64,000 nt of DNA from Bacteroidota bacterium (GCA_038746525.1 JBCDKO010000002.1:1733-65732); one strand, 5' to 3'; numbered from the stretch's first letter, positions 1 to 38,472 are shown. Translations and numbers: made by a program. Notes: a model not told the origin generated them from the letters alone.

Positions 1-2295
1 TATCTTCTCAAGATCATATTCCTCACGCTCTCGATTTTGATCCAATTCCCTTTCCCAGTGATATCCTATATTCGGTATAATATCTCTTGCATTCATAAAA
101 AGCCCATTAAAAGTCAAATCTGGTTGTGCCTCACTTTGAGTAAATCCAACGTACTGCTTTTCAGCGGTAATAGTCAATGAGCCGGTAGCCGCAGAATCCA
201 GACTGATTGGAAGCGCAAGTTGGTTAAACTCGTCATCTTTCCATGCTATTTTTATTTGCTGATCGTTCCATTTGATTTCTTTGAATTGAATGAAGTCATC
301 GTGATGTAAGTATAATTTGTCAATAGTGATTAAATATGGATTAGATAGCTGCATGGCCACTTTATACGAAGCTTTTCGCGCATCTGGAAAAAGGTCTAGG
401 TTAAGGTCTAAGCCTGTCAATTTAGGTTGAAGCTCATCTTCTATCCATTTATACTTTTTCTCATAATTAGCATTATCAATCATTTCTTGTGTTTCTGTTT
501 CGAAATTGCCTTTGTCATTTACTTCCCTGACAATAAATGATTGTAAAAAGAAAAACGCAACCAAACACAGAATCACTAATGCCTTACCAGAGAGGTTCAG
601 CTGAGAAGTACGAAATGTTAGTTTTCGAATGAAATTCAAGGAAATACCACGCCTCCAAAAGTGAATCCCGAGCAAAACAAAAACGAAGGCCAAAGCAGAC
701 CATAATAGGAAATACCACCATGAGGCAATCGTCCAGATTCCGTAACCATTTATATCTGAAAAGTCTTCTACACCGGGGGTTAGGGCATATCCAAACCGAA
801 CCTCTTCCATAATACCCATATCAAAACTGATAATATTAAAGAAGTAATAGCCTATTCCTAAAATATGTGTTAGGAATCGATTTCCAGTGAGTCCTGCCAA
901 AAAGAAGACAAGAGCTATATTTTGAAGGTAAGTCAACCACCCCCATTTGTATCCCAATACATCATCAGCATATCTCAAGAGGTCAATTTCTTGCCACCCA
1001 CCCATGAGTATTTGTGCTACGATGCCACAGGAAATTATCACTAAAGCCGTCATAAAGGCTACTCCGCTCATAGCAACAAACTTAGACAAGTTGGTCACCC
1101 AAACCGGAACGGGAAGCGAATCAGTAATCTGCCAGATGTTAGAAATACGGTCTTTGAAGAATAACTCCCCTGCCCAGATCATCAACAGCATCATGATGAA
1201 GAACCCCATAGGTAACCTTACAAATGTCATTGAAGAAGTAAGCGGCTGTGATGGTCCAAGGTAGTAAGTAGCATTCCACATTACATTTTGGAGAAAAAAC
1301 ATCAGTGCCAGAATCCCCATAATAATTTTAAAATTGATGGGCCTCACCACATTTTTAAACTCGAGGGTAGCCAATCGCCAAAACTTGCGGACGAACTCCG
1401 CTGAGGAGAACGTTTGCACCACTTTTGGGATCGTGAGTTTTCCAAACTTAGTTGGTTTCAGATCCTCAAAGATTTTGTTTTTGGATTTACCGGAAGTATT
1501 AACAAACTCCTTGAAAGAGAATTTTCTATAAGCAAAAAAGAAAAGCAAAAGTGTACCCCCTACCCAAAATAGACGGTTCAAATAGAAGGTCGAATTAAAA
1601 GTCAGGAAACCGGTGTTCTTCTGATCTGCGGGAAGTGCATCCATCATCGTGTCGGTATATACATAGGTAAAAGGATCGAGCAATTCGTAAGCCGTTCTGT
1701 TTTCTGCGTTCGCATTAGTACTCTCCGCTACCAAAAAGCACATTACCAAAACGAAAATGCTCAAATAGCCAGCTGCCATTTTTTTAAAGAAAACAATGAC
1801 GGAAAAGCACACCATCGTCAAGATCAGTAGATTCAACATAGTAAGCGTCAAAAACCCATGAAACATCTGTGCCCATGGCATTGGTCCAAACTTGTCCGGA
1901 GTGCCTATACCCGAATAAGGAGTAAGAGCCATTCCTACAAGAATCCCAAACCCGATGATAACATTGATAAGATAGGCAGATAAGAATCTTCCCAGGAAAA
2001 ACTGTTTTTCGTTGATAGGCGTAGCATACATAATTCCTGAAGTTTGATACTGTATATCTTTATATAAAACAGTACCTGTTATCAGTGCAATAACGATGAC
2101 CAAAAGCATTCCTCCCCCGGCAAAATTTTTATAAAATAATGCTGCTCCATTCATGAGGGTTGCATCATTCACGTAGTATTCATAGCTCCCTTGCGTATAC
2201 CAGATCCCTTGAAAAACCAGCATTAGAAAAAAAAGGAGTGTCATTGGCTGCTTAAAGCGTGCCCGGAGTTCGAATCGTAAAATTTTTGCAATCAT
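1..2295 (-). CDS. ABC-2 type permease / M1 aminopeptidase-like fusion, paralog 2 (C-terminus runs off the window start; not in ORF track)
   Basis: Manual translation from ATG at 2295 (MIAKILRFELRARFKQPMTLLFF...YKNFAGGG...LYKDIQY...FFLGRFLSAY) stays open to base 1 (...EYDLEKI) and aligns co-linearly with 3248..6526. Confidence 0.9.
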   Translation of the reverse strand, partial: MIAKILRFELRARFKQPMTLLFFLMLVFQGIWYTQGSYEYYVNDATLMNGAALFYKNFAGGGMLLVIVIALITGTVLYKDIQYQTSGIMYATPINEKQFFLGRFLSAYLINVIIGFGILVGMALTPYSGIGTPDKFGPMPWAQMFHGFLTLTMLNLLILTMVCFSVIVFFKKMAAGYLSIFVLVMCFLVAESTNANAENRTAYELLDPFTYVYTDTMMDALPADQKNTGFLTFNSTFYLNRLFWVGGTLLLFFFAYRKFSFKEFVNTSGKSKNKIFEDLKPTKFGKLTIPKVVQTFSSAEFVRKFWRLATLEFKNVVRPINFKIIMGILALMFFLQNVMWNATYYLGPSQPLTSSMTFVRLPMGFFIMMLLMIWAGELFFKDRISNIWQITDSLPVPVWVTNLSKFVAMSGVAFMTALVIISCGIVAQILMGGWQEIDLLRYADDVLGYKWGWLTYLQNIALVFFLAGLTGNRFLTHILGIGYYFFNIISFDMGIMEEVRFGYALTPGVEDFSDINGYGIWTIASWWYFLLWSALAFVFVLLGIHFWRRGISLNFIRKLTFRTSQLNLSGKALVILCLVAFFFLQSFIVREVNDKGNFETETQEMIDNANYEKKYKWIEDELQPKLTGLDLNLDLFPDARKASYKVAMQLSNPYLITIDKLYLHHDDFIQFKEIKWNDQQIKIAWKDDEFNQLALPISLDSAATGSLTITAEKQYVGFTQSEAQPDLTFNGLFMNARDIIPNIGYHWERELDQNREREEYDLEKI

Positions 2296-2306
2296 AAGTG
2301 TAGTGT

Positions 2307-3194
2307 TTAGGCTTCGACAAGTAGTTTCTGCTTTGAAAGCTCATAGAAATACGCATCTTCCAACATCGGAGATTTAGCCCAGAACTCCCCATCTGGCAAG
2401 TCGTCGGAGATAACCGTAATCAACAGTTTACCCAAATGAAATCGACTTGAAATTACATTCAAGGTATCCTCATAAGTAGATAAATCTTCTTTATCTATTT
2501 GTTTTTCCCAGATTTTTCCAGCCAGCGCTTTTTCTACCTCTTCGGGTGACCCGGTCAATAAAACCTCACCCTTTCCGATAATGGCCATCTGATTACAAAG
2601 AGTGCTGACATCTTCCACAATATGCGTGGATAAAATAACCACTGTGTTTTCACCGATTTCTGATAATAAGTTATAAAAGCGATTACGCTCCATGGGATCA
2701 AGACCAGCAGTGGGCTCATCTACAATGATCAATTTCGGATCTCCAAGTAGTGCCTGCGCTATTCCAAATCGCTGCTTCATTCCACCGGAGTATCCCCCTA
2801 ATTTTTTATTTCGCACATCCCAAAGATTCACTTTTTTAAGCAGTGCATCCACCTGTTCTTTTCGCTCCGAAGGATTGATGATCCCTTTCATATCAGCGAT
2901 ATGGGTGAGCAATTCCGTTGCGGTAGCTGCGGGATAGACACCAAACTCCTGAGGCAAATACCCTAAAACTTGCCTCAGTTTATCGGGTTCTTTTATCACA
3001 TCAACATCATCAAAATGGATGCTTCCACTGTCCGCATCCTGCAATGTGGCAATAGTTCGCATCAGTGTGGATTTGCCTGCGCCATTCTGACCCAGAAGAC
3101 CGAACATTCCTTTGCTAATGTTCAGACTTACATTCTTGAGCGCTTGCACACCATTAGGGTATGTTTTTGATAGATTATTTATTTCTAGTTGCAT
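2307..3194 (-). CDS. ABC transporter ATP-binding protein (CcmA/ABC-2 type)
   Basis: Walker A GQNGAGKST, signature YSGGMKQ, Walker B IIVDEPTAGLD, H-loop STHIVED. Confidence 0.95.
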   Translation of the reverse strand: MQLEINNLSKTYPNGVQALKNVSLNISKGMFGLLGQNGAGKSTLMRTIATLQDADSGSIHFDDVDVIKEPDKLRQVLGYLPQEFGVYPAATATELLTHIADMKGIINPSERKEQVDALLKKVNLWDVRNKKLGGYSGGMKQRFGIAQALLGDPKLIIVDEPTAGLDPMERNRFYNLLSEIGENTVVILSTHIVEDVSTLCNQMAIIGKGEVLLTGSPEEVEKALAGKIWEKQIDKEDLSTYEDTLNVISSRFHLGKLLITVISDDLPDGEFWAKSPMLEDAYFYELSKQKLLVEA

Positions 3195-3247
3195 GATATG
3201 ATTGATTTAAGTAATGGTCACTTTAAATTTTTCCGGTACTGTTACAA

Positions 3248-6200
3248 TTACTGAATAACTTCTTCGAATCCGGTTTTTATAGCCTCAACATCCTCCTCCG
3301 ATAGCTGAGCTATCGCGCTACTTCTCAGAAGTGTTAAATACAAATCGTAAAAAGTACCCTTTTCTTCCAGACCTTCTGCCCAGGTTTTGACAATATGGTT
3401 GAATTGATCGATACCTACTACATCATTCAGTTGATAAAGCTCAATCGTACCTTTGTTTCTTTCAAGGTACTCAATACCATCTGCATTTATCAATGGTTGC
3501 TCTACATTTGGTTCATTGCCGCGTTCTCGAACATATAACCCTCTTTTCTTTGTAAGCAACCAGTCAATTCCTTCTTGGCCGTGTAGCTCATTGATGAGCT
3601 GCATGGCCAGGCATTCAGGAAGTGCATAGCGAAGCATATCTGCGCCTTGAACGTTGGCAATCGCAACATTTTGCATCACCCAATGTGAAATCAAATTAGC
3701 GGCAATGGTGAAGTTCATGTAAACCCGATTGTCAAAAGAGGTGGAATCAGCAAACCATCCTTCTTTTTCTGAAATCGCAATGGTATTCGGAAATGTGTAG
3801 TGTGGCTCCTGATAGAAAGGAATTTCAATCAGCTTCACTTCACCGTATGGATAATCACCTAGCCTGGCCTCTATAAAATCCAGTGCCACAGAAAATGAAT
3901 TTTTGAAAAATGGTATGTTATAGGCATGCTCAGGTTTATGGTAAATGTGGCATTTTGTCTTTCCATAATTGAAAGAAAACTTTTTGTAATCAGCCGATCC
4001 AAAATACCATTCATAAGGTGCAGGGGCTTCAAGTGAGTACTTAAAATGGTTCCTTCCATCTTCCTGCCATGAATTGATCAGCGCTCCCGGACCAACAGCC
4101 ACTTGATCAACTGTCGTGCTCAACTCTACGGAACCCTTTAGCCACAAAGCATCTGGCGAGTATGCATCTTCTTGTAGAGCAATCGAATCCGTCACCGCAG
4201 ACATACGAGGGCCGAGCTTTTCCATTCCCCAATCTCTGCGGTACCGGTTCTCCATCAACTCACGATCGTCTTTGTAACCTATACTCGGAAGCAGATCCTG
4301 AGCCCTAAGAAAAGACCCATTGTAAGTCAACTCCGGCTGTTGCGTCTTCTTATCTTGTGTAAACCCAATGTGCGCCCTTGAACCTTTGATTTGCAATGAA
4401 CCCACTGAATCACTAAGCATTCCAATACCAAGAGCCATCATATTAAGTTCCAAATCAACCCATGCTGGTTGTAATTTTTCTCCATTCCAGATCAAATCCT
4501 TATACTGAGTAAAATCCGGAAAATTGAGATATAGCGTATCAATATCGCTTTTCTGAGGGTTACTAAGGCTGTAAGTAGCCTCAAAACGCGCAGACCTATT
4601 TTGAGGACTAAAATCTAGCTTTACGTCAACCTGAGTAATTTTGGGCTGTGGGTAAGATGATAATTTTTTATATTTTTTTTCGTATTCTGCATCTTTTTGC
4701 TGTGTTTGAAGTTTCGATTCAAAATTCCCTTTTGCATGAACATTATTGAGAATAAAAAACTGTAAATAAATGAAGGATGCCAGCGAAACACCAACAACAG
4801 TTTTACCAAACCAATTAAGTTGATTTCCTCTAAAGGAAAGTTTTTGAGGGAATTTATGACTTATGCCTCGCTTCCAGAAATAGATGCCCAGTGCCAAAAA
4901 AGCAATAGCAAGGGTAGTCCATAAAAGAAAAAACCATGGAATTGATGTTTGCCAAATGCCGTATCCATTCATCTCCGAGTAGTCATCCACTCCGGGTACG
5001 AACATGTAGATGAAGCGGAGTTCTTCAATAATCTCTAAGTCAAAGCTGACCAGGTTGAAGAAGTAGATCCCAACAGATAGGATATGTGTAGCGAACCTAT
5101 GAGCCGTTAATCCCGCTATTAGGCAAACAAGTGCCAGCATTTGCAGGTAATTCAACCACCCCCAATTGTACCCCAGTAAATCAGTAAAATAGAGTGTGAA
5201 ATTAATTTCGTCTGAGGCTCCTTTAATTACTTGTGCTGTGATTCCAAATACAATAAACATACTGGAGATCAAAAGCGTCACTACGCTCATTGCGAGAAAC
5301 TTGGAGAGTACGGTTATCCACACCGGAACCGGGAGAGCGTCCTTCACCTGCCAAAGCCCAATCACTCTGTCTTTGAATAACAATTCGGTGGTCCAAATCA
5401 TAAGAATGAGCGAGACCCAGGTGCCCGTTGAAATACGCGTCAACGTCATCGTAGAAGTGAGTGGATAACTGGAGCCTACATAGAAAGAAGAGTTCCAAAG
5501 TAAGTTGCTTAAGAAAAAAACAATGCTTAAGATGAATATGAGTACTCTAAAACCCGGAGTGCGGACAACATTCTTCATCTCCAATAAAGAGAACCTCAAA
5601 AGTTTTCTAAAAAAATCGGTAAACTGATAGCTAAGATGTACTTTGGGAATCAAAATGCCCGTATTTGCCCCGGAAAGAGGCAGTGGTTTCTTATTAATGG
5701 GTTTTCTTTTCACAGAATTTACATTTCCAGCTACAAACCCTTTGAAAGTAAAAGATCTGTAACCAATCCATAGCATGATAAGGGAAAATCCCAGCCAAAC
5801 CACCCTGTTCAGTAAAAACATGTGATTTAGTGGTAAGTAGGCCTCATTCCTTTGAGCTACAGGAATGGTATCAATGGTTGTGGTAGTATATACAAAGGAG
5901 GAAGGGTCAAGGATCTGTAATAATTCAAGGTGAGAGGAATCCGGCCGGAGTGTTTCACAAACAAAAAACAGGAGTGTGATAAAGAATATACTCAAATAGC
6001 TGGAAGCAATTCGCTTCGTCAATACCAGACAAGAAATGCTAACAGCAGTGTACACAAATAAGTTAGTAGCAGTAAATACAAAAAAACCATAAAACATCTG
6101 GCTCCATGGAGTGGGGCCAAACTGATCCGCATCACCTATCCCTGAGTAAGGGACGAGAACCATCCCAACAAACATCCCGAATCCAAGAATTAGGTTGATG

Positions 6201-6526
6201 ACGTATGCTGATAAGAACCTTCCGAGAAAGAAAGTTTTGTCATTAACTGAGGTGGTATAAATAATTCCCGCAGATTTATACTGTATATCCTTATACAGAA
6301 GTGAACCGGTGACTAGCGCAATAATTATCGTCATGACGATGCCACCACCTGCGAAACTTCTGTAGAATAAGACCGCTCCATTCATTTTGGTAGTATCATT
6401 GACATAAATGTCGTATGAACCCTGTAAAAACCATATGGATTGAAAGGCCATCAAAGCAAAAAACAGGAAGAAAAGCGGTTGCTTTAAACGGCTTAGAAGC
6501 TCGAATTGCAAAATTTTCTTAATCAT
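3248..6526 (-). CDS. ABC-2 type permease / M1 aminopeptidase-like fusion, paralog 1 (M1 site degenerate)
   Basis: Two multi-TM blocks then a soluble M1-like region (EIPFYQ..FPNTIAISE, ANVQGADML, NKGTIELY); HExxH absent. Confidence 0.85.
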   Translation of the reverse strand: MIKKILQFELLSRLKQPLFFLFFALMAFQSIWFLQGSYDIYVNDTTKMNGAVLFYRSFAGGGIVMTIIIALVTGSLLYKDIQYKSAGIIYTTSVNDKTFFLGRFLSAYVINLILGFGMFVGMVLVPYSGIGDADQFGPTPWSQMFYGFFVFTATNLFVYTAVSISCLVLTKRIASSYLSIFFITLLFFVCETLRPDSSHLELLQILDPSSFVYTTTTIDTIPVAQRNEAYLPLNHMFLLNRVVWLGFSLIMLWIGYRSFTFKGFVAGNVNSVKRKPINKKPLPLSGANTGILIPKVHLSYQFTDFFRKLLRFSLLEMKNVVRTPGFRVLIFILSIVFFLSNLLWNSSFYVGSSYPLTSTMTLTRISTGTWVSLILMIWTTELLFKDRVIGLWQVKDALPVPVWITVLSKFLAMSVVTLLISSMFIVFGITAQVIKGASDEINFTLYFTDLLGYNWGWLNYLQMLALVCLIAGLTAHRFATHILSVGIYFFNLVSFDLEIIEELRFIYMFVPGVDDYSEMNGYGIWQTSIPWFFLLWTTLAIAFLALGIYFWKRGISHKFPQKLSFRGNQLNWFGKTVVGVSLASFIYLQFFILNNVHAKGNFESKLQTQQKDAEYEKKYKKLSSYPQPKITQVDVKLDFSPQNRSARFEATYSLSNPQKSDIDTLYLNFPDFTQYKDLIWNGEKLQPAWVDLELNMMALGIGMLSDSVGSLQIKGSRAHIGFTQDKKTQQPELTYNGSFLRAQDLLPSIGYKDDRELMENRYRRDWGMEKLGPRMSAVTDSIALQEDAYSPDALWLKGSVELSTTVDQVAVGPGALINSWQEDGRNHFKYSLEAPAPYEWYFGSADYKKFSFNYGKTKCHIYHKPEHAYNIPFFKNSFSVALDFIEARLGDYPYGEVKLIEIPFYQEPHYTFPNTIAISEKEGWFADSTSFDNRVYMNFTIAANLISHWVMQNVAIANVQGADMLRYALPECLAMQLINELHGQEGIDWLLTKKRGLYVRERGNEPNVEQPLINADGIEYLERNKGTIELYQLNDVVGIDQFNHIVKTWAEGLEEKGTFYDLYLTLLRSSAIAQLSEEDVEAIKTGFEEVIQ

Positions 6527-6595
6527 ATCACGTAAACATTTAGTTTTTTATTATTATATCTCTGCTAGAACATTTCACTGTGCAATCATCTATTT

Positions 6596-7981
6596 TCATC
6601 CGGTTACGGCCGCATTTGTACCTTCAATGATTGGAGCTTGAGACAATGCTTTAAATAGTTTCATCACCACAAGTAGCATCCAGATTGTAATAACCACATC
6701 AATAAGTGTAGAGCCATAATACACCCATTCCACCCCAAAAAACCGTGGAAGCAGTAACATCACTGGTACATAAAGCAGGATCTGACGCGCCATACCAATG
6801 ATACTACCAGACTTTGCTTCGTTGATCGCCGGAAGAAAGGTCATTGTCATGAAGACAAGTGGTAAAAGCGGAAGTACAAGCATGTAAATTCGGAAACTTA
6901 AAATATCCTGCTTGGTAAAGAGCATGTCCGGTAATACCAGCTGCATGCATAGAGTTGGAAACACTGTGAGTAGGATCCAGAAAGGTACGATCAACAAAAC
7001 GCCCGTTTTTGAGAACAAAACAAAACTCTCTTTGACTCTTTCATAAAGTTTCGCTCCAAAATTGATCCCAATCACCGGCTGTAAGGCACGCATTAAACCA
7101 ATAAGGGGCATCATTAAAAAGAAATGCAACCGATTAGCTGCTGCGAAAAAGGCCAAATCGTGTTCAGTGCCGGTATTGACAATGGCATTGAAAACAATAA
7201 TGGCCTGAATCAGATAGGTTAGCGCCATCATAAATCCCGGAAATCCCATTTTCATAATCAACTGAAAAACCTCTTTATTATATCTTAGGGATTTTATCTC
7301 TGAAGTGAAGGATGCCCTCCCCTTTAGAAAATATACATAACCAACAATCGAATAAATCAACATGCCGATATTCGTGCCCCATGCTGCACCTGCCACTCCC
7401 ATATCCAGTACACTTATGAAAACTGGTGTGACTACGAGATTAACCGTGAGTCCATAACTCATCATACGCGCAGCAGTTGCCATCCTTCCCTCTCCACGGA
7501 TAATCATATTGAGCGTAAGCCCATATACCCAAAATGGAGATGCCAGCATAGTAATTTTGAAATAGGTAACTCCCTCGGATAATATAGCTCCATAGCCCCC
7601 CATCATGCGAATCAAAGGCTCTGCAAAAAAATACGCAGGTAGAGCTATAAAAAATGTACAGGCAATTGCGAATAAGGTGGCATTAGGAAGGATGTTCACT
7701 TGTGTCTTCTCATCTTCATCTCCAATAGCGATACTCAATAGATTAGCTGCGCCCGTTCCTGCCCAGGCACCTAATCCAAGCAAGATAGAGGTTAAAGGGT
7801 AAGCCAACGCCACTCCAGAAAGGGCGGTTTCATTCATTAATTGACCAATATAAACAGTGTCCATGAAGGTATTCAATCCATAAAGCACCATAGCAGCTAT
7901 GGCAGGAAGAGAGAGCCTCCACATTATCTTTAGTAAAGATTCGTTTAGAATGAATTTTTTTTGCTTATCCTTTAAATCCAA
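6596..7981 (-). CDS. MATE family efflux transporter
   Basis: About 12 TM segments; MWRLSLPAI, DTVYIGQL..ALSGVALAYP, IIRGEG, QPVIGINFGAK motifs. Confidence 0.92.
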   Translation of the reverse strand: MDLKDKQKKFILNESLLKIMWRLSLPAIAAMVLYGLNTFMDTVYIGQLMNETALSGVALAYPLTSILLGLGAWAGTGAANLLSIAIGDEDEKTQVNILPNATLFAIACTFFIALPAYFFAEPLIRMMGGYGAILSEGVTYFKITMLASPFWVYGLTLNMIIRGEGRMATAARMMSYGLTVNLVVTPVFISVLDMGVAGAAWGTNIGMLIYSIVGYVYFLKGRASFTSEIKSLRYNKEVFQLIMKMGFPGFMMALTYLIQAIIVFNAIVNTGTEHDLAFFAAANRLHFFLMMPLIGLMRALQPVIGINFGAKLYERVKESFVLFSKTGVLLIVPFWILLTVFPTLCMQLVLPDMLFTKQDILSFRIYMLVLPLLPLVFMTMTFLPAINEAKSGSIIGMARQILLYVPVMLLLPRFFGVEWVYYGSTLIDVVITIWMLLVVMKLFKALSQAPIIEGTNAAVTG

Positions 7982-7993
7982 TTTATCTGAAGT

Positions 7994-8437
7994 TTAGTTT
8001 ATAACAAAGTGTTTTAAATGACCGCTTTCACTGATAATTAGGATAAAAGTGGAAAGTGATACAAACATCCCCATACCAAAGAAAAAAGGGTCCGCAAAGG
8101 GAATATCATGAAAAAGGTGGATGAGGAAAATATTGAAAGCGATCGGAAGATGTATCAATAATCCTATGAACCAATACTTTTTCGTAAAAAGTAATATACC
8201 AATCAGAACATGAAAAAAACGGACGCTAATTCCTAGGTAAGTATCCATCATGGCGTTAAAAAAAACTCTAAACTTATCGCCAAAAAGCAAAATACCTTCA
8301 TTTTGAGGGTTATACCCTACAGTGAAAAACTCAACTATTCCCATGATAGCAATGAATAGCAGAACTGCCCCAAGTAACCATCTGATTATTTTCTTTATCG
8401 GTTTCAATTGAAAGTGTATTAGGTTGGTTTTAGTCAT
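7994..8437 (-). CDS. DoxX-like membrane protein
   Basis: Four hydrophobic segments; RWLLGAVLL..G, GILLFTKKY..GLLIHLPIAFNIFLIH pattern. Confidence 0.6.
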   Translation of the reverse strand: MTKTNLIHFQLKPIKKIIRWLLGAVLLFIAIMGIVEFFTVGYNPQNEGILLFGDKFRVFFNAMMDTYLGISVRFFHVLIGILLFTKKYWFIGLLIHLPIAFNIFLIHLFHDIPFADPFFFGMGMFVSLSTFILIISESGHLKHFVIN

Positions 8438-8471
8438 TGGACGAACCGGTTAGTTTTGGAAGTAAGAGTCA

Positions 8472-9377
8472 TTAGATAGAAAATGTACCATCTGTGATTG
8501 AATAAATAACCTCGCCATTTTGATACGCCTTTAGACTAAATCTTCCTCTTGTTATCGAAGAAAAATCGACGACTTGTTCCTCAATGACAAATTCACCGTC
8601 ATATTGAAAGTCTTTCCATTCACCATTTCGTTCCTTGAGCACGATAGCTTCGTAAGCTCCCTCATACTTTCTAACTGTTACAAGATCAATAGAATCATTT
8701 TCATTAAAGGAATAGACACCAACATCCATATCTTTCAACTCATCGCTGGTTACAATTGCAATGCTGAAACCATCATCTGAAATACCATTCCATACGCTTT
8801 TAAATGAAGTAATTGAATTCTGATTGTTTCTTGTCTGTGAGGTAAATCCTATAATATCCACCACATTAAAGGCTTCCTGATTAATGTGAGCGTTTATTTC
8901 CCTTTGACTTGCCGTGCAATCAATACTTTTTAGATTTTCTATTTTCACTTTACCTGCTATTGACTTTGTATTTTGACTTTCATCAATTTCATATAAAGTC
9001 CCATCAAACTCAAAACTTAAGGTCCTATCAAGTGGAGAAAAGGCATAATTTTCAATGAAAAAAACTTCTGAAGAAAGATAGTCTGCTGTTTTGAATTGCC
9101 TTCCTATCACGTCAGAAAAATCCAAATAGGTAATCTCTTTTATTCGTCCATCTGTTGTAATAGCTATTTCTAATCGAACCCTTGAACTATCTACGATAAA
9201 ATAAGAAGTGTTTAGGAAAATATTTTCACAATTCTCATTAGCGAATGATTCATCTTCTGCGAACGTAAATGTTTGATCGTTTAGTTGAATTTCCATTAGC
9301 TGTTTAATGGCCGGTAATTCTTCCGAACTACATCCAAAAATTAAAGCCAGAACCAATAGAATTAGATGTTTCCTCAT
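8472..9377 (-). CDS. Hypothetical lipoprotein, probably two beta-rich domains
   Basis: Likely start ATG 9377 (MRKHLILLVLALIFGC, lipobox); ORF track start 9434 overlaps the upstream gene; beta-strand-rich, ends YSITDGTFSI. Confidence 0.7.
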   Translation of the reverse strand: MRKHLILLVLALIFGCSSEELPAIKQLMEIQLNDQTFTFAEDESFANENCENIFLNTSYFIVDSSRVRLEIAITTDGRIKEITYLDFSDVIGRQFKTADYLSSEVFFIENYAFSPLDRTLSFEFDGTLYEIDESQNTKSIAGKVKIENLKSIDCTASQREINAHINQEAFNVVDIIGFTSQTRNNQNSITSFKSVWNGISDDGFSIAIVTSDELKDMDVGVYSFNENDSIDLVTVRKYEGAYEAIVLKERNGEWKDFQYDGEFVIEEQVVDFSSITRGRFSLKAYQNGEVIYSITDGTFSI

Positions 9378-9424
9378 AGCTGTTCCTATAGGACCTATAA
9401 ATATGAACTGCTTTTGTACATCCC

Positions 9425-9841
9425 TTATATCCATTTAAGCTGTGGTTTAAGAAAAACAGCCTTTAATTCTTTGAAATGGCTCAGCAGCAAAACACTATTG
9501 AGCAGAAAAATGACACTGTCAAAAATGATGAACCCCGTATATCTCGAAATAAATACTTGGGTCATTAGCAGACACAACATTAACGGTACCATCATTACTG
9601 CACCCAACAAATACGTCTTTTTGAAAACAAGTAACAGGCCATTAAGAAGTTGGAAAAACCCTACGAAGTAGAGATATCCCGTACCCATCAGAAAATCATA
9701 GAACTCGAAAAATTTCGGATCGGTCATCTCCACATCTGATTTGAAGACAGAAGGATTGTATGGCAGGAATAGCTTTTCTATTCCTGCATATACAAAAATC
9801 AATACCAAAAGAAACCGGATGATATATCGCGCTATTTCCAT
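9425..9841 (-). CDS. DoxX-like membrane protein
   Basis: RFLLVLIFVYAGIEKLF, GTGYLYFVGFFQLLNGLLL, LLGAVMMVP; four TM segments. Confidence 0.75.
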   Translation of the reverse strand: MEIARYIIRFLLVLIFVYAGIEKLFLPYNPSVFKSDVEMTDPKFFEFYDFLMGTGYLYFVGFFQLLNGLLLVFKKTYLLGAVMMVPLMLCLLMTQVFISRYTGFIIFDSVIFLLNSVLLLSHFKELKAVFLKPQLKWI

Positions 9842-9866
9842 AAGGCTGAACTTGCCTCAATCACTG

Positions 9867-11198
9867 TTAATCTAGGCTGTAAAGCTGAGGCAGTCCCACA
9901 GTTTCAAAGTGCCTGGATGCAGAAAGGTCATTGAGATCCACTTTCATGACAAAATTTTCTCCATTACTTTCGAATGGAACATAACCGAATCCATCTTCAA
10001 AATAAGAAACCGCGGCTAAAGCACCTCTTGTATATTCTTCGGTAACAATAGAAGCTGTTTGATTGTAAAGATCGAAACTCCACCACTGAAAGATAGGATC
10101 TACAAAATATGAATTGGGATTTTCAGGATCTATTGATTCAGGATCTTGCACGGCCGCAAGGAACTTCCCATTTCCGTAATATTCGAAGTTCATGACACCA
10201 TTGCCTGTACCTCTGGAAACACTCTCTACATCAAAATAATACTCCGGGTCAAAGTCGGTTTCTCCATCTGCAATCTTCAAAACACAGGCGGGGTTAAAAG
10301 CTGGTCGTAAAGATGGATTGGCCCAAAAATTATGGCAGAGAAAGTAGATATCATTGTTTTCGTCCATTTGCATAAAATAGTTTCCTCCCCCTGATCCCCA
10401 GGCACCTGTTGAGGACCCTCGCTCATCATAAATTCGCTTAACTACTGCATCTGTGTTGCCTGTCTCGTTGGTGTTGACTAAGTCCAAATCCACTACAATA
10501 ATGGAACATCCAATTTCAGCAGGGAGAAATCCTTCAATTCGTGAAAGAGGCATTAACGCAGCAAAAAGGTAATTGTCTCTAATAATAATTTCTGTGACCG
10601 CTTCTGCTTGATAAGTTCCTCCTTCGACAGAGAAATCAGTGGACTCTCCTACCTTAGAGAAAGCTCTGAAATCGATGTTTCCTGTTTTTGTCATGGTAGT
10701 AGGATTAAAAATGATGATGTCCGTACTTATGCCTCCTACAAATGCGGTTGATGCGTCTCTAAAAGCAGTATTTCCTTGAAATTGAAGTTCTGTGAGTGAC
10801 ATCTCCCCGGAGTTAGTGGCATTATTGGACTCATCAATGTCCCATTTCACCATTCGTCCGATAGCATAATCACTGAAATAAACGGTTCCATTAAAGGAAT
10901 GAACCATGGCACCTGTAGCCGGACTTAACTCGGTGGCATTTTCATTACCTACTGAACCGGTAGAATCTACAGACACCCGCTGTAAGAAGAATGCACGGGT
11001 TTGCCCGTCTGCATTCAAGGTAGAAGTAACCATAGCAAATTCATTGGCTATAACTTCCAGGGTATCTACCACATCGTCTTCCGGTAGATCGGGCACAACT
11101 TCTTGCTCATCGTCATCACAGCCTCCGAGCGCGACGAACATCAGAAGTACCCATACCAACGATATTTGTTTAGTGAATGAATAAAGATGATTTTTCAT
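9867..11198 (-). CDS. DUF4374-like (XusB-like) surface lipoprotein
   Basis: Lipobox ALGGC followed by acidic DDDE; DENNDIYF, VLKIADGETDFDPEYYFDV motifs; directly downstream of a TBDT. Confidence 0.7.
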   Translation of the reverse strand: MKNHLYSFTKQISLVWVLLMFVALGGCDDDEQEVVPDLPEDDVVDTLEVIANEFAMVTSTLNADGQTRAFFLQRVSVDSTGSVGNENATELSPATGAMVHSFNGTVYFSDYAIGRMVKWDIDESNNATNSGEMSLTELQFQGNTAFRDASTAFVGGISTDIIIFNPTTMTKTGNIDFRAFSKVGESTDFSVEGGTYQAEAVTEIIIRDNYLFAALMPLSRIEGFLPAEIGCSIIVVDLDLVNTNETGNTDAVVKRIYDERGSSTGAWGSGGGNYFMQMDENNDIYFLCHNFWANPSLRPAFNPACVLKIADGETDFDPEYYFDVESVSRGTGNGVMNFEYYGNGKFLAAVQDPESIDPENPNSYFVDPIFQWWSFDLYNQTASIVTEEYTRGALAAVSYFEDGFGYVPFESNGENFVMKVDLNDLSASRHFETVGLPQLYSLD

Positions 11199-11216
11199 AA
11201 TGTTAAATTGTGATTC

Positions 11217-13577
11217 TTATAGTTTTTCTAAAAAAAGTCTTGCTTTGACGTAAATGCTTCTTCCCGGCCTTTGGACATTAAAATTATCAAATGCACGTGC
11301 ATCAGAGAGGTTTCTACATTCTACACCCAGGCTCCACCGCTCTTCAGGAGCAAGCCACACTGCAGATAAGTTATGTATCTTTTGAGTGGGGGTATTGGCT
11401 TGTTGCTTGGCATCTTGATCCCAACTTGCTAAGAATGAATGCACATAATTAAAGCTGTAACGAAGTTTTATCTCGCCTCGGCTTATTGGCAACTGAGGTA
11501 TAGAATAATCTGTAATAAAATTAGCAAAAAGATAAGGTTCATTAGGTATCCTCTCACCAATAGATGAGGCAGAAAAACCTTCATTTGTATCTAAGTCTCT
11601 AGCAATCGCATTTTGGTAGGTTCCATTAAAAAAGATTTTCAAGCCATCAATCAATTGATAATCCGCATTAATCTCAATTCCATTTGTTTCTACCTGAGAA
11701 ATATTTTTATATTGGGAACTCGCACGGTTTGCAACCACAAGAAACACTTTATTCGAAGTATTACGATAGAAAAACGAGGCGCCAGCATTAAATTTTCCTT
11801 CTGCATCTTTCCATTCTAACCCTGCATTGATATTGTGGCTTTCCTCAGCTTGTAAATCCGGATTGGGAATTATTCGGATGAAATCTCCGAACAATTCATC
11901 ACTATCAGGTTGACGTATGGTAAATTCATAACCCAGATTGGCGACGATATTTGTTGTGATCTGATAACGGATCACATCCCCATATCCAAAGAGGGAATAC
12001 GTGTTTTCCTCGAGTGGACCCACTTCATCAAATTCAAAACTAATAGCTTTGGATCGTTGATAGAAGTGCTTAACAGAAACAATATTGGTAAGTCTTGAAC
12101 CTAACATTCTACTCTCCAGAGCCAAACCGGTATAATTTTTTATGAGGTCTTGAGGCTCTCCCAGGCCTTCCTGATCTTCTTGAGAAAATGCAGGATTGGA
12201 AGCCGAAAGGGCATCCTTTGAATACAGTAAAGTCAGATTCAAATTGTGCTGCTTACTAACGGCATAATTGAAATTTTGCCTGGCAAAATAGGTGTCTGTA
12301 TTAACCTCAGGAGTAGTGCCGTTGCCGAAAATACCTGATTCTCCTGCAAGCGTTTTAGGTACAAAATTCTGATCCCAGAAATAGATTTTCCGAGCCGTAT
12401 CCACAAAGTTTAATTTATTAACAATGTATCCTGCCGAAAGACTGATATCCCATTTATCATTTCCTGCAAACTTTTTCCACGAAAAAGCGGTGCTCCAGGA
12501 ATCTTCCTCAGAGTCAGGTTCTCCCCAAGGAGTTTCAGCTGTAATACCATGTTGCCACTCTCTGTCAACACTTGATAGTGATGAGAAAACTTGTATTTCA
12601 TCTGCCCAGGAAAGATTGCGTGCACCCAGAGTGATCCTCCCCAACTTAGAATCAAATGCATCATTAAATCTTCGTGCACGTCCTTTTTCGGTATTGTTAA
12701 GATCATCTATTACAATATCCACATCATCCATCCAATAATCATTATCAGCATAGGTTTGAAATCCCTCAACACCTATGCTGAATCGCTGATTTTTCCCAAA
12801 GCGTTTGTTTACACTCAACGTGGTTTGGTGCGTATTCCAAGAACCATATGAATAGCTTAAATCTAGGTAGTCTGAGTTCTTTTGTCGGGTTTTGATGTTG
12901 ATAACACCGCCCAGGGCATCTGAGCCAAATTTTACCGGAATGGTTCCTTTATACACTTCAATGTTTTCAATGACTCCTTGCGAGATAGTATTTATAGCAT
13001 AACCAGCTCCAAGTAGATAGACTGGGATTTCATCAATAAAAACCTTCACGCCTTTTCCACCAATTCCATTAATAGAAATGTCGACTTCACTACCCGCGCC
13101 ACCATTCTGTCGAATACGCATACCTGGCATCTGGTTAATAATGCTTACTACTTCTACCGGCTGCGATCTGATGTTATCCAGGTTAAGGAATTCTGCTTTG
13201 TGAGGCTGGTTTAAAATTCGCTCTTCACTACTTTGTCCTTTTATAACAACTTCTTCCAACTCAGTGGTAGATTCATTCAGCTTAAATGAATAGCGATAGG
13301 ATTTGGAAAAAGGAATAGTAATGGATTGATTCAGGGTTTCAAAACCTACTGAATGTATATTGATTGTATAAACCTTTCCTTGATCAAGAAGAAAAGTTAC
13401 TTCTCCATTAATATCAGAGACGGCTTTTAACGCAATTGAAGAAACTTCTACATAAGCTCCTGTAAGTTCAGCGGCATCTTGATCAAGGATGGTAATTGTT
13501 ACGCTACATTGATCTGAATACGCAATAGACAAATGCGTAATCATACCTAAAAGTAAGCTAATTATGATCCTCTTCAT
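11217..13577 (-). CDS. TonB-dependent transporter, probably iron-chelate uptake
   Basis: Signal peptide, N-terminal carboxypeptidase-regulatory-like domain, LEEVVIKG, plug (PGMRIRQNGGAGS..IEVYKGTIPVKFGSDALGGVINI), R.P...ELFG..NPDLQAE, C-terminal RPGRSIYVKARL. Confidence 0.93.
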   Translation of the reverse strand: MKRIIISLLLGMITHLSIAYSDQCSVTITILDQDAAELTGAYVEVSSIALKAVSDINGEVTFLLDQGKVYTINIHSVGFETLNQSITIPFSKSYRYSFKLNESTTELEEVVIKGQSSEERILNQPHKAEFLNLDNIRSQPVEVVSIINQMPGMRIRQNGGAGSEVDISINGIGGKGVKVFIDEIPVYLLGAGYAINTISQGVIENIEVYKGTIPVKFGSDALGGVINIKTRQKNSDYLDLSYSYGSWNTHQTTLSVNKRFGKNQRFSIGVEGFQTYADNDYWMDDVDIVIDDLNNTEKGRARRFNDAFDSKLGRITLGARNLSWADEIQVFSSLSSVDREWQHGITAETPWGEPDSEEDSWSTAFSWKKFAGNDKWDISLSAGYIVNKLNFVDTARKIYFWDQNFVPKTLAGESGIFGNGTTPEVNTDTYFARQNFNYAVSKQHNLNLTLLYSKDALSASNPAFSQEDQEGLGEPQDLIKNYTGLALESRMLGSRLTNIVSVKHFYQRSKAISFEFDEVGPLEENTYSLFGYGDVIRYQITTNIVANLGYEFTIRQPDSDELFGDFIRIIPNPDLQAEESHNINAGLEWKDAEGKFNAGASFFYRNTSNKVFLVVANRASSQYKNISQVETNGIEINADYQLIDGLKIFFNGTYQNAIARDLDTNEGFSASSIGERIPNEPYLFANFITDYSIPQLPISRGEIKLRYSFNYVHSFLASWDQDAKQQANTPTQKIHNLSAVWLAPEERWSLGVECRNLSDARAFDNFNVQRPGRSIYVKARLFLEKL

Positions 13578-13588
13578 TTTCTGTCATT

Positions 13589-13618
13589 ATTTAGAATTAC
13601 TCTGTTAGAATTACTCTG
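13589..13618. promoter_or_regulatory. Putative tandem Fur-type operator containing an exact 14-bp direct repeat
   Basis: TTAGAATTACTCTG at 13591-13604 and 13605-13618; 13589-13607 matches 14/19 of the Bacteroidota Fur box as I recall it (ATTTAGAATTATTCTAAAT); lies between the -7 element and the TBDT start. Confidence 0.65.
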
Positions 13619-13628
13619 AGTGTTAAAG

Positions 13629-13636
13629 CAAACCTA
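13629..13636 (-). promoter_or_regulatory. Bacteroidota sigma-A -7 element for the TBDT operon
   Basis: TAGGTTTG on minus strand fits TAnnTTTG, 52 bp upstream of the ATG. Confidence 0.55.
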
Positions 13637-14109
13637 TAATTGAAAAAAAGGAGTGACATACGTCAAACGGAGAAAGACCTACGCTAGAGGGAGAAAGATT
13701 AAACTATTCAATAATTTTCAAAGTTCAATTAAATTTACTCCTTTACGAACACTTTCATAAAAGCGTGGGACAATTTAGCTGATTCCTCTTTTCACTAGAT
13801 CCGGGACTAGCGGTCCTTGCTTCCCTCTTTAAATATTTCTAATAGGATTGGCCTTTATAATGGCATTATATCCTCTCCGGTGAAAAGCAAATTTTTTAGC
13901 TTCCCAGCGATAATATGCCCTAAGAATAAAGCCAACAAAGAAACAAATGCAGTATTCAGGAATTCTGATTCTTTATAGGGTTAAGCGCTGAGCTTATGTA
14001 AAATGATCCAGAGAATAATAGTGGATTAGCCCAATAAATTTTGAAACATGACCAGGATTTATAAATTAAAAAAACTAAAAGATAAATAGTGTATTTTCTG
14101 TCGAATTTC

Positions 14110-14164: not shown

Positions 14165-14239
14165 CGGGGCGTGGCTCAGTCCGGTTAGAGTACCTGGTTT
14201 GGGACCAGGGGGTCGCAGGTTCGAATCCTGCCGCCCCGA
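14165..14239 (+). tRNA. tRNA-Pro(TGG), CCA not encoded
   Basis: CGGGGCG acceptor stem pairing with CGCCCCG, anticodon arm CCTGG-TTTGGGA-CCAGG, T-loop GGTTCGAATCC. Confidence 0.97.
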
Positions 14240-14823
14240 CTTCTGCTAGTTTAAATCGAGTTAGAAAGATAGAAATAATTTCTTACAGGTTCTTTCTCAT
14301 CATTCTCACCACCTTGCGCTACGTAGTGTATTATATTGGGTGGTTTTATTTATTTTGAACCGTGGTATTATCTACCAATTGAGTTTTTTGGTATAGCCAA
14401 TGGTTTAGAAAACTAAAGCCGTTCCCAATTCAGGCCATTTATGTAGTGATTGGGCAAAATCTACGGCCAAATTAGCGTATCCATGGAATGATAGAGATAA
14501 ATCAGTCGTTAAGTTATCAAAACAGGTATCAGTTATATAAAATAGGATCTTAGATTAACTTCTCCTACACCCTCCGCAGTCCTTGTTTGTCCGTATCTCC
14601 CGTTCTGGCCCTGATAGCTTGTGGTTTGGGTGCTTATGCATCATCCCCAGAGACCAAAATGACTATTGGTACATCGAAATCTCAAAAAAACTCGCTCTAT
14701 GAGCTAAAAACATTGTTTTCTTTCAAAAGATACTGTTTTCTTAGAGACACTAACTACTGATCTTCAACTAAAATCTGAAAAAGCAAAAAATCGTGCAATA
14801 CAAGTCATGAAGAAAATTCTTTT

Positions 14824-17800
14824 TTAAAAAAAAGCAGTGACTTGTACGTTTCCTGTGTGAATGGCTTGCAGAGCTTCTGACTTTCGCCCATTATAAAACA
14901 AAGAAATCTGCATTCCTTTCGAAAGGCGTTGTTGCACATTGAGCTGCCAGGTCTGGTTGATGCCTGGTTGTAATCCATCTAAAAGGATATAGCCTAAGTA
15001 AGTCGAAGGATCACCTTCGAAATTAATCATTCGTACTGAGAAGGTTGCTCTTATAGATCCTCTGGCAGTTTGGTTCCAGGTTAACTCTCCTGTGTAGGAT
15101 TGTGTAATGGATGACTCTTGAGAGGTTTCCAGAAATTCATTCTTACTATGTTTTCTTTCATAGCTGCCAATCAACCTCAAATAGTTGCTGGGTTGCCAGA
15201 TCAATTGAGGTTTGAAGACATTTGAGTGGATGTCAAAATTTCTGGAATCCAAAAAATCAGACCTATTGAATTGACTTCCGAATGAGGATGTGAACCGAAA
15301 AGTGTATTCTGAGGAAAGACCCAATTTAAAATTTGATATCCACTCACTGCGCTCTCGCGTTTCAAATCCTTGTGTAAGTAGCTGCTTGCTGTCGTTGATT
15401 TGTCTTGTAAAGTCTGCTCCAAACCCTCTGCCATTCTGATTGAAAAATAAAGTATATCGTTTAGCGCTTTGTATAGAGATGATCTCCTCATCCTTAAGAT
15501 CGACAGATAATGGGTTCAAGCGATCTGAATAATCCGAGGAAGTAGTCTTATAGCTAACATTTAGATTTGCATTAGCAGAAAACCTATAAGCAAATGATTT
15601 CACTCCTCCTTGATTTCTCCAACTTGATGGTGCTCTGACATCAATGGTATGTAGGTAGAAGGTTTGAAAAGAGGTGATGTATTCGTCGGTAGGAGTGAAT
15701 AGTTTCACGTAGTTTCTTTCATCTGGATTGATTGCCTCAAAAAATTCATTTAAGTCCTGAACACCATCACCATTATTGTCTCTCCAGGTATGTGTCCCCT
15801 CTCCGGTATTGACGGGCAGGTAAACAAACTCCCTTCGCAACTCCCTGCTGTTTCCAGTACTGTACGAAAAAGTATGACGCAAAATGCTCTTCAAAAACTC
15901 CTGTGACCAGTTTAGTCTTCCATTGATTACCTCATCCCGCCCCTCATTCAAGTCGAGTTGATCATCCACATGGCGATAATTTACATCAAAAGATACCCTT
16001 CCTTTACGGCCATTTTTGACATATGACCCCCTGAAATTCCTGGAAAGCAAATAGTCTTGCAACTCTCCACTGACAGGAAGTCTATCTTCACGAATTTGAT
16101 ATGCAAAGCGAAAAGTTGACTCCGTAGAATCACCACTTGAAAGATAGAATTCAGAAGCCTTGAAATTCATTAAAGTACTGATCACACGGTCTTGGAACTG
16201 CATTTTGTTTTCATCTATTTCAAAAATGAAGCCTGGAACTATTTTCCATTTACGATAGCTCACATCTGATTTTGATCGAATCCATGACGTTGAAGTTTGA
16301 TTTTGATCATTATCTAAATGAAAATGAGTGGATTTTAGACGAAAGTTTCCAAACTCTTGATTTAGCACTAGTTGTTGTTGCCAACCATTAATTTGGTTTC
16401 CCCGTTCTCTTCTATTAAGGGAAAAAATCAACTTGTTTCCATCATTTCTAACCAAACCTATGTTTGTGAAAACGATGAGGTCTCTGGAATTTGTCCCACT
16501 ATTTTGATTAAAATTCCAGTTACGATCAAACAATGGAGGTCTATAACGATCAATAAAAGTAAAATCCTTCTGATCGTATTCTAATGACAAAGAAGCTTCC
16601 CATAAATAGCCGGGCAAAAAAGCCTCCCTCCCATTTGATTTTATGGATACAAAGAGGGCCTGCCCATCGTTATCATCATCTTGAAGCTCTGAGTACAGGT
16701 TATTGTCCTGTTGGGAAAAAGCTCCCTCAACACTTACATTTTCATAGCCTGAGATCGTCACCTCTCCTCCTATTGTAATTAATTGCTTTTTATTTGGTAA
16801 AGGGATAAAAGATCCAGGTTCATAATTTCCTTTAGGTACGCCATTCTCCGGAGACACCCATTCATAAACCTTTCCATTGACCGTCGTCTCCTCAAGTATG
16901 TAATTGCCGTTTCCAAAACCAACCTCTGAAAAAGTAGGGCTGAAAAGCTCTTCGTTAAGGTCGGTAGAATATTGGAAAATCGTAGCAGAATGACCACTAC
17001 GATCAACCGTATCTACTTGCTTATACATCACCCTATTCTCATTGAACTCAACCGAGTCAAAGCCTGTAATGAACGCTTGATCCGCATTATCGCCAATGCG
17101 TTGAAGTTGAGCTAAGTCTGCTTCATTTAGCGAGAATCCAAGATTTCTATTCGGATTATCTTTTTCCCTGTAATAGTTAGCAAAGAGCCGCACATTGTTC
17201 TTTTCCAGTGATTGGAATGTGGAAATATTGGATCTATTGTAAAACTGTTCGGAATATTCATAATCCACGCGAATAATGGAAAATTGGGTGATGATTATGT
17301 GGTTGTTGAAAGTGATTTCACCAAGATTATAATCAATCACATAGTCTCGGTCAAACCCTCTTTTTAATCGCTCTCCATCCAAAAAAACTTTCTCCGAGTT
17401 GGCTAACACAATAATGAACCGCTCACCACGAGGACCTCTCAATTTATAGGGTCCTGAAAGTCCATCTATTGGTTCCACCAAAGCCGAATTGAATTTTCCT
17501 TTTGATACTGCTCCTGAAACCCTACTTACATACTCCCAATCCTGACCACCTCTCAAACTCGCTTGAAGTCCCTGGATGTTTTTATAGTATTTCAAAAAAT
17601 AGCCTGCATTTTGTGGTTCCTTTAGAACGATATCTCCTGCTGTGATGTCGAAGTCATCATTACATAGCTTGATGTATACATTGTCAAAATCACGAATCTG
17701 TTGCGTATTGCCTTCAGGTTGATAGGGAACATTTTGATCGGTGATTACTGCCGATAAATAAAGATCTTCATCCAACTTGCCTTGCATCTGCAGGTTTAAT

Positions 17801-21622: not shown

Positions 21623-21658
21623 GAGGAAAAGTTATACCAATCAAGCTTGAATCAACGA

Positions 21659-22232: not shown

Positions 22233-22240
22233 AATGCTAT

Positions 22241-38451: not shown

Positions 38452-38472
38452 TATTTAGAATCATTTTAAATA
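38452..38472. promoter_or_regulatory. Near-palindromic Fur-box-like site upstream of actA
   Basis: TATTTAGAATCATTTTAAATA; central 19-mer matches ATTTAGAATTATTCTAAAT at 17/19. Confidence 0.65.

Follow-up and report, generated by a model that had tools for sequence, protein, structure and literature searches.

A variant of the Xus xenosiderophore system in Bacteroidota with iron-linked features and a new inner membrane module

We analyzed a 64,000-nucleotide stretch of DNA from a Bacteroidota bacterium (GCA_038746525.1, JBCDKO010000002.1), hereafter called the window, which spans positions 1733-65732 of contig C2 in a 4.9-Mb assembly of 371 contigs. At its left end lies a nine-gene operon, a genuine iron-linked variant of the Xus system whose inner membrane module is new, and for this module a mechanism can be inferred. 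XusABC is the xenosiderophore utilization system of Bacteroides thetaiotaomicron, in which XusC is a PepSY reductase (PMC13142918). The operon encodes homologs of XusA and XusB together with a DoxX-like protein and an ATP-binding cassette (ABC) transporter whose permeases carry a domain with the fold of M1 aminopeptidases. We assign a probability of about one-half to the reading that the genome has at least eight paralogous cassettes for iron chelates (xenosiderophores), this operon among them, with the DoxX-like protein and the ABC transporter taking over the inner membrane stage. The cassette is widely conserved in Bacteroidota and apparently undescribed; our literature searches on the ABC/M1 fusion and on a link between DoxX, a TonB-dependent transporter (TBDT), and siderophores turned up no account of it.

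RESULTS

The operon begins with a XusAB homolog

By open reading frame (ORF) analysis of the window, nine genes are all encoded on the minus strand with intergenic gaps of 11 to 69 bp, in the order 13577-11217 (XusA-type TBDT), 11198-9867 (XusB-like lipoprotein), 9841-9425 (DoxX-like protein), 9434-8472 (second lipoprotein), 8437-7994 (147-aa membrane protein), 7981-6596 (MATE transporter), 6526-3248 (permease A), 3194-2307 (ABC ATPase), and 2295-<1 (permease B). A 10-nt overlap at the gene for the second lipoprotein vanishes if translation starts at Met20 (MRKHLILLVLALIFGC), and a hairpin scan found no terminator-like hairpin in any intergenic gap of the operon. The gene for permease B runs across base 1, and its stop codon is located 953 bp to the left of the window. 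Because this stop codon is followed by approximately 780 bp without a credible ORF up to the end of the contig, the operon ends there.

The gene identities and order agree with a first-pass annotation of this DNA, which had described at least nine co-oriented genes in the order given. That annotation also had the operon continuing past base 1, which is true of its last gene, but the operon goes no further than 953 bp to the left. The accompanying suggestion that biosynthetic genes might be found in that direction did not hold: there are none in the approximately 780 bp between the operon end and the contig end, and continuation of the operon into such genes is ruled out.

The first gene (11217..13577, minus strand) encodes a 786-aa TBDT with Pfam CarboxypepD_reg, Plug, and barrel domains. 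Its closest solved structure in a phmmer search of the PDB is XusA of B. thetaiotaomicron (9gbc_A, E=3.4e-79, residues 67-782), where 9GBC is a cryo-EM entry for XusAB. The NCBIfam match is to an MxcH-like model at 407 bits, which is below the equivalog cutoff. The second gene (9867..11198, minus strand) encodes a 443-aa XusB/DUF4374 surface lipoprotein that was assigned through its homologs, a family profile, and structure prediction. Taken alone, this protein scores 21.1 bits against Pfam DUF4374 (cutoff, 25), whereas PF14298 is carried by 8/8 of its orthologs and by 52 of 53 database homologs, the sole exception being partial. A single-sequence phmmer search of the PDB gave no match, and the similarity emerged only with a family profile, which was built from eight orthologs and matches XusB of Bacteroides fragilis (9hqe, E=2.6e-14). 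A Foldseek search with the AlphaFold2 (AF2) model (pLDDT 90) recovered ferrichrome-bound B. fragilis XusB (9hqk) with a target-normalized TM-score of 0.78 (E=3e-19).

The lipobox Cys27 of the XusB-like protein is followed by DDDE, an acidic stretch of the kind expected for a surface-export signal, and such a signal has been reported for XusB homologs (PMC13142918). We conclude that the TBDT and the lipoprotein are a genuine XusAB homolog, and the earlier view of this pair as Xus-like is upheld by the match to 9gbc_A, the PF14298 domains of the homologs, and the TM-score. Further XusA/XusB-like pairs are present in the same genome on contigs C92 (64/70% identity) and C1 (43/45% identity). As had also been noted at first pass, no PepSY-TM gene follows the pair. 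A family search of the genome found none on contig C2 and recovered copies on other contigs, and no PepSY_TM gene is present inside any related cassette among the loci compared below.

An ABC-2-type transporter with a degenerate M1 peptidase domain

The ABC ATPase (295 aa; 2307..3194, minus strand) is DrrA/GldA-like as judged from Pfam, NCBIfam, and motif content. It matches ABC_tran at 111.6 bits, and its top NCBIfam matches are DrrA and GldA, both under their cutoffs. The Walker A (GQNGAGKST), signature (YSGGM), Walker B (IIVDEP), and H-loop (STH) motifs are intact.

Two permeases are encoded on either side of the ATPase. Permease A (1,092 aa; 3248..6526, minus strand) consists of two sets of six transmembrane (TM) helices of ABC-2 type, a thirteenth helix (TM13), and an M1-fold domain (residues ~626-1092). 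Permease B (1,082 aa in total; 1..2295, minus strand, continuing to 953 bp left of the window) also carries a pseudo-M1 domain. The single permeases of Fulvivirga M361 and Agaribacillus BMA12 share 64-65% identity with permease B, whereas the identity between permeases A and B is 48%. Therefore, permease B is the canonical cassette permease and permease A is an extra, lineage-specific paralog.

Permease A has no direct match in sequence searches of Pfam, NCBIfam, or PDB. Permease B has a weak match to ABC2_membrane_4 (E=0.0068), homologs carry PF12730 and PF12679, and one source names such homologs NosY-type "multi-copper enzyme maturation permease subunit." The AF2 model of permease A (pLDDT 87.7, pTM 0.84) displays the 6+6 TM helices and places the thirteenth at residues 572-596. 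In Foldseek searches, its C-terminal domain matches ERAP1, IRAP, and LTA4H (E~1e-15) and the bacterial two-domain M1 enzyme 6kp0 (target-normalized TM-score 0.69), and the model contains the M1 fold, with its N-terminal beta domain and thermolysin-like domain. The odd number of helices and the positive-inside rule suggest that this domain is periplasmic.

Alignment of permease A with HExxH-bearing relatives reveals AANLIS in place of AHEVGH, a Tyr in place of the distal Glu, and an Arg in place of the catalytic Tyr. The zinc site (HExxH-X18-E) and the catalytic Tyr are thus absent from permease A, and the same is true of permease B. Approximately 110 full-length relatives of permease A come from Bacteroidota, Chlorobi, and a small number of further phyla, and more distant relatives of approximately 1,210 aa carry Peptidase_M1. 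HExxH occurs in none of the 105 members of the pseudo-M1 clade, whereas HExxH...E is kept by 105 of 110 longer relatives; in total, about 975 clusters at 50% identity (E<=1e-30) make up the ABC-2/M1 superfamily. On these sequence grounds, the M1 domains of both permeases are judged to be catalytically dead, in agreement with an earlier description of pseudo-peptidase ABC subunits. The residues surrounding the former active site are the best-conserved part of the domain. E920 within IAISEKEGW is invariant in both the pseudo-M1 clade and the true-M1 relatives and, given its position, is probably the equivalent of the GxMEN-type Glu.

The DoxX-like protein

The third gene (9425..9841, minus strand) encodes a 138-aa inner membrane protein of the DoxX/MauE family with four TM helices. 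It passes both relevant Pfam models, with 26.1 bits for DoxX (cutoff, 23.6) and 27.1 bits for MauE (cutoff, 27). Its 201 homologs are nearly all 138 aa in length and are named DoxX or MauE/DoxX, and the protein is 50-90% identical between the loci compared. An alignment across loci revealed no evident redox cofactor motif in this protein.

The cassette is conserved across genomes

A pattern scan that used one genome per species yielded 78 loci, whose genes were mapped by tblastn and by de novo ORF clustering. Most of these share a recurring order: a divergent AraC gene, a TBDT gene, optionally a gene for XusB or a 121-aa membrane protein, a DoxX-like gene, optional genes for an ICMT-type methyltransferase, a class I S-adenosylmethionine (SAM) methyltransferase, and a MATE transporter, and finally the ATPase and permease genes. 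Counts were made on the Bacteroidota loci that have 6 kb or more of sequence upstream of the ATPase-permease pair, of which there are 45. A TBDT gene on the same strand lies upstream of the pair in 39/45 loci, a DoxX-like gene in 30/45, and an AraC gene, divergent to the operon, in 33/45. The remaining components are less frequent (ICMT-type methyltransferase, 17/45; MATE, 16/45; class I SAM methyltransferase, 11/45; XusB, 7/45). The core of the cassette is the TBDT, the DoxX-like protein, the ATPase, and the pseudo-M1 permease, and XusB and MATE are accessory. Export genes had been tied to the uptake pair in the first-pass annotation, and they do recur beside TBDT genes in other genomes (TBDT, 39/45; MATE, 16/45); the linkage of the ABC pair with the TBDT is not due to chance.

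The cassette can also be reduced further. Minimal AraC-TBDT-ATPase-permease versions exist, for example, at locus L021 and on contig C27 of the source genome, and the DoxX-like gene is absent from the cassettes at L016, L021, L063, and C27. DoxX-like and PepSY proteins never occur within one cassette among the compared loci. FeoAB and PepSY-TBDT modules often adjoin cassettes, and FeoB is present in the source genome.

The source genome carries at least eight permease copies (two on C2 and others on C208, C177, C132, C220, C65, and C27), and most of its cassette copies come with an AraC gene, a TBDT, and a Fur box of their own. Synteny extends over Fulvivirga, Algoriphagus, Microscillaceae, Saprospiraceae, and Flavobacteriaceae, and TBDT-linked copies are also found in Chlorobi. 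In Chlorobi (L023, L029, L040, L053, and L064) and in an unclassified metagenome-assembled genome (L081), a TBDT often adjoins the ATPase-permease pair, and genes near these permeases encode an LCM-type carboxyl methyltransferase, an MMPL transporter, and/or paired ABCB-type half-transporters with YbtPQ-like architecture. The pseudo-M1 cassette also occurs in some Desulfobacterales. In the two contexts examined for true-M1 relatives (L082 and L083/L084), there are plain ATPase-permease pairs and no TBDT, AraC, or DoxX neighbors.

Some loci depart from these arrangements. In five loci of Flagellimonas, Maribacter, and Allomuricauda (L055, L056, L057, L066, and L078), the permease seems to be divided between two ORFs, neither an ATPase nor a TBDT nor an AraC gene was detected nearby, and there is another set of conserved neighbors that includes a 1,056-aa protein. 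In Aquimarina (L003/L012), genes for a fatty-acyl-AMP ligase (FAAL) and a polyketide synthase-nonribosomal peptide synthetase (PKS-NRPS) directly follow the ATPase-permease pair; only L012 among the 78 loci matched probes made from these Aquimarina genes. On contig C51 of the source genome (~14300-22500), a cassette-type ABC ATPase (68% identity) directly adjoins large NRPS genes and a fatty-acyl-AMP-ligase-like gene, an arrangement similar to that in Aquimarina, and this locus may represent an endogenous cluster for a lipopeptide or siderophore.

The leader carries Fur-like and AraC-type elements

The leader contains a putative AraC-type operator (13656..13697, minus strand) formed by two repeats in direct orientation with a period of 21 bp (CTTTCTCCCTCTAGCGTAGGT at 13697-13677 and CTTTCTCCGTTTGACGTATGT at 13676-13656), which ends approximately 20 bp upstream of the -7 box. 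That box is a -7 element of the Bacteroidota type, TAGGTTTG (TAnnTTTG; 13629..13636, minus strand), and related leaders have TACATTTG or TAGGTTTG in the same place. An exact tandem repeat of a 14-mer, CAGAGTAATTCTAA, follows at 13591..13618 on the minus strand (units 13618-13605 and 13604-13591), and each unit equals the 14-nt core of the Fur box of flavobacteria. Promoter elements occur only before the first gene of cassettes.

Alignment of leaders shows that AraC-type repeats with the consensus TTATTCCGTTTTGCGTAGGT, present twice, precede cassettes in many genomes. A strict form of this pattern is found in 24/43 cassette leaders versus 1/712 control upstream regions. The source genome has three strict sites versus 0.33 expected, all of them before cassettes, and other copies are more degenerate. 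A 21-bp direct repeat has the geometry typical of AraC-family activators, which makes this site a candidate operator. This repeat, probably the chief element of regulation, had not been noted at first pass. In the window, a tRNA-Pro(TGG) gene on the plus strand (14165-14240) lies directly upstream of the operon and occupies the place that the divergent AraC gene has in relatives.

Directly downstream of the -7 box, cassette leaders contain a conserved palindrome, e.g., TATTTAGAATCATTCTAAATA, that equals the Fur box ATTTAGAATTATTCTAAAT. This box was predicted for Riemerella anatipestifer, and Fur shifted promoter fragments containing it in electrophoretic mobility shift assays (PMC5609570). At three or fewer mismatches, the box is present in 32/43 cassette leaders versus 38/712 controls, and at two or fewer mismatches, the source genome has 14 sites versus 1.2 expected. 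The leader fits the flavobacterial box but not the classical Fur consensus of Escherichia coli. Six flavobacterial loci (L022, L030, L039, L043, L046, and L047) carry a fur gene beside araC (PF01475, E=2e-28). Elsewhere in the window, a Fur box with one mismatch at 38453-38471 (ATTTAGAATCATTTTAAAT) is among the four best in the genome; an earlier annotation had placed it upstream of a respiratory (ACIII/aa3) operon.

In the window, the tandem 14-mers create two overlapping 19-mers with five mismatches each to ATTTAGAATnATTCTAAAT, which are not significant alone. In L004, the nearest relative, the 14-mer occurs once, within a Fur box with three mismatches, and the box of L005 also has three. 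Given the single copy in L004, the duplication in the window is recent and strain-specific, and it splits one moderate box into two weaker overlapping ones. The -7 element and duplicated Fur-like box reported at first pass are thus both present, and the 14-mers do hold the Fur-box core, but a conserved double operator is ruled out by the single copy in L004. Together, these elements suggest that the operon is under dual control, by Fur repression and by activation through a dedicated AraC-family regulator.

Lineage-specific and neighboring genes

The remaining genes of the operon are less broadly distributed. The MATE family transporter (461 aa; 6596..7981, minus strand), identified through Pfam and NCBIfam, is accessory, as noted above. 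The 147-aa, 4-TM membrane protein (7994..8437, minus strand) is present in 5/45 loci; it has no Pfam match of its own and is a distant paralog of the DoxX-like protein (26% identity, E=2e-7). The second lipoprotein (320-aa ORF; 8472..9434, minus strand) probably starts at Met20 (~9377) and has the lipobox LIFGC followed by SSEE. Family searches gave no match for it, and among the compared loci it has a homolog only in L013 (48% identity). Beyond the tRNA-Pro gene, a minus-strand ORF of 1,165 aa (14824-18321) has no Pfam or NCBIfam match.

DISCUSSION

Proposed mechanism and its alternatives

By homology with the Xus system, XusB at the cell surface would capture a ferric chelate, which XusA would carry through the outer membrane. 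The stage at the inner membrane, which belongs to XusC in Bacteroides, would be taken by the 138-aa DoxX/MauE-like protein together with the ABC-2-type ATPase and permease. The dead periplasmic M1 domain may serve as a tethered receptor for the incoming chelate, and the ABC transporter would import the chelate or hand it over at the step between the periplasm and the inner membrane. MATE, together with the methyltransferases where these are present, would dispose of the spent chelator, and we retain the earlier idea of re-export for MATE only. A role for the ABC transporter at this step is favored because it is the only inner membrane component of minimal cassettes. Furthermore, the AraC sensor, the SAM methyltransferase, the ICMT-type enzyme, and MATE act on cytoplasmic substrates, and the ligand would therefore enter the cell. 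The link to iron is supported by the placement of the Fur box just downstream of the -7 box in cassette leaders. We propose more tentatively that the DoxX-like protein and the ABC-2/pseudo-M1 transporter form an unrecognized inner membrane stage, in which a dead peptidase has been recruited as a periplasmic receptor and an ABC of "exporter" fold takes the chelate, or its iron, from the outer membrane transporter.

Several points weigh against this interpretation. ABC-2/DrrA-type transporters are exporters or periplasmic mechanotransducers, and we know of no prokaryotic importer of the ABC-2 fold. The periplasmic position of the M1 domain is a prediction, and conservation of the pseudo-active site suggests a ligand-independent role rather than a ligand-specific pocket. 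The Fur boxes of the window itself are weak, with five mismatches each. In addition, no AraC gene is adjacent to the operon in the window, for which a 68%-identical candidate lies on contig C311, or in the closest relative, L004.

Another possibility, which we consider rather unlikely, is that the operon recycles or detoxifies chelators. XusAB would import the chelate, the DoxX-like protein would reduce and free the iron in the role of XusC, Fe2+ would pass through FeoB, and the ABC-2 transporter and MATE would export the apo-chelator, methylated where methyltransferases are present. Such a role would suit an ATPase that is closest to those of DrrA/GldA-type exporters, the efflux function of MATE proteins, and the recurrence in cassettes of carboxyl and SAM methyltransferases, as in drug-modification sets. 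The mutual exclusion of DoxX-like and PepSY proteins within cassettes and the presence of FeoB in the genome and beside several cassettes point the same way. However, there is no gene for an outer membrane channel or adaptor by which a periplasmic substrate could be expelled. A chelator that stays outside the cytoplasm would leave the AraC sensor, SAM methyltransferase, and MATE without a substrate, whereas one inside would leave the cassette without an importer and minimal cassettes without any inner membrane importer. The proposed reductase also has no evident redox cofactor motif, and its gene is missing from the four cassettes listed above. A mechanotransducer like NosDFY or LolCDE, which we rate as distinctly unlikely, would dispense with translocation: an ATP-driven pseudo-M1 clamp would pull the chelate off the transporter or force iron release or hand-over to the DoxX-like protein and FeoB. 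The NosY-type names of some homologs, the fusion of a large periplasmic domain through an extra TM13, the high and seemingly ligand-independent conservation of the pseudo-active-site region, and the strong conservation of the DoxX-like partner are consistent with this proposal, but it leaves the cytoplasm-facing accessory genes and AraC induction unexplained.

Two further explanations have far lower standing. If the ABC transporter and MATE export a self-made siderophore that the TBDT retrieves, the window would hold the transport half of a biosynthetic locus. This would accord with the Aquimarina pairs directly before FAAL and PKS-NRPS genes and with the cassette-type ATPase that abuts NRPS genes on C51, but only 1/78 loci (L012) matched the Aquimarina probes, the operon of the window ends without biosynthetic genes, and at least eight copies with their own AraC gene and divergent TBDT better fit the piracy of many foreign chelators. 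Export of an endogenous siderophore thus fits only the rare NRPS-adjacent copies (L003/L012 and C51) and is very unlikely for the operon described here. A chance juxtaposition of a Xus-type uptake pair and unrelated drug-efflux genes might be imagined because each gene type is common in Bacteroidota. We reject this extremely improbable explanation, since synteny is kept across several Bacteroidota families with a TBDT upstream in 39/45 loci, promoter elements stand before the first gene only, and the operon has no internal terminators.

Implications

Iron-chelate uptake through a DoxX-like protein and an ABC transporter, if true, would fill a gap after the outer membrane step that the Xus literature has left. 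How iron and siderophores move past the periplasm in Bacteroidota is largely unknown, and the cassette offers concrete, testable inner membrane parts; a 2026 paper on Xus structures still calls the inner membrane ferrous carrier unknown (PMC13142918). The cassette also gives the dead branch of the ABC-2/M1 fusions, a superfamily of approximately 975 clusters, a first biological context, namely, iron-chelate uptake. It is conserved in marine Cytophagales and Flavobacteriales, reaches at least eight copies in one genome, and has a recognizable Fur/AraC control region. Several cultured strains carry it, among them Fulvivirga sp. M361, Agaribacillus aureus BMA12, Algoriphagus sp. 4150, Aquimarina hainanensis KCTC 42423, and Maribacter antarcticus DSM 21422, which makes genetics and uptake assays feasible.

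Comparison with known systems

The operon has in common with XusABC a XusA-type TBDT and a DUF4374/XusB lipoprotein with an acidic stretch, and iron-linked regulation is indicated here by the leader elements. Unlike XusABC, it has no PepSY_TM XusC and instead includes a DoxX/MauE-like protein, MATE, an ABC-2 ATPase with two pseudo-M1 permeases, and an AraC-type operator. Related cassettes differ even more from XusABC, as their TBDTs are mostly not of Xus type and XusB is present in 7/45 loci only.

The pyochelin system (PchR, with PchHI) and the yersiniabactin system (YbtA, with YbtPQ) are siderophore systems controlled by AraC-type regulators and Fur. They resemble the cassette in that a Fur box lies over the promoter with a direct-repeat AraC site just upstream and in that a TBDT is combined with an ABC transporter of non-importer fold. 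However, their ABC proteins are type IV (ABCB-like) half-transporters, whereas the permease described here is a 13-TM protein of ABC-2 type with a fused periplasmic pseudo-peptidase. Moreover, most cassette copies are without adjacent biosynthetic genes. In its overall logic, the operon would operate like a siderophore piracy locus of the Xus or PchR/YbtA type, with other parts at the XusC step.

With the approximately 1,200-aa fusions annotated as "ABC transporter permease/M1 family aminopeptidase," the cassette permeases share their architecture, full-length homology at about 25% identity, and an ATPase gene immediately upstream. Those longer proteins differ in that they keep HExxH...E (105/110) and have an extra C-terminal domain, and this catalytically intact family, with hundreds of clusters, appears to be uncharacterized. 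NosDFY and similar systems are ABC machines that drive periplasmic work, and they likewise pair a NosY-like membrane domain of ABC-2 type with a large partner domain in the periplasm. In the operon described here, by contrast, the periplasmic module is fused, has the M1 fold, and is part of an iron-uptake operon.

The hfp operon of Flavobacterium psychrophilum encodes the TBDT HfpR, a DoxX-family protein, and HfpY and is induced by iron scarcity (PMC9331221). As in the cassette, a DoxX-family inner membrane protein directly follows the TBDT. The hfp operon differs in being a heme system with an HmuY-like hemophore and no ABC transporter, MATE, or AraC, and hfpR-doxX-hfpY is the nearest precedent for the association of a DoxX protein with a TBDT.

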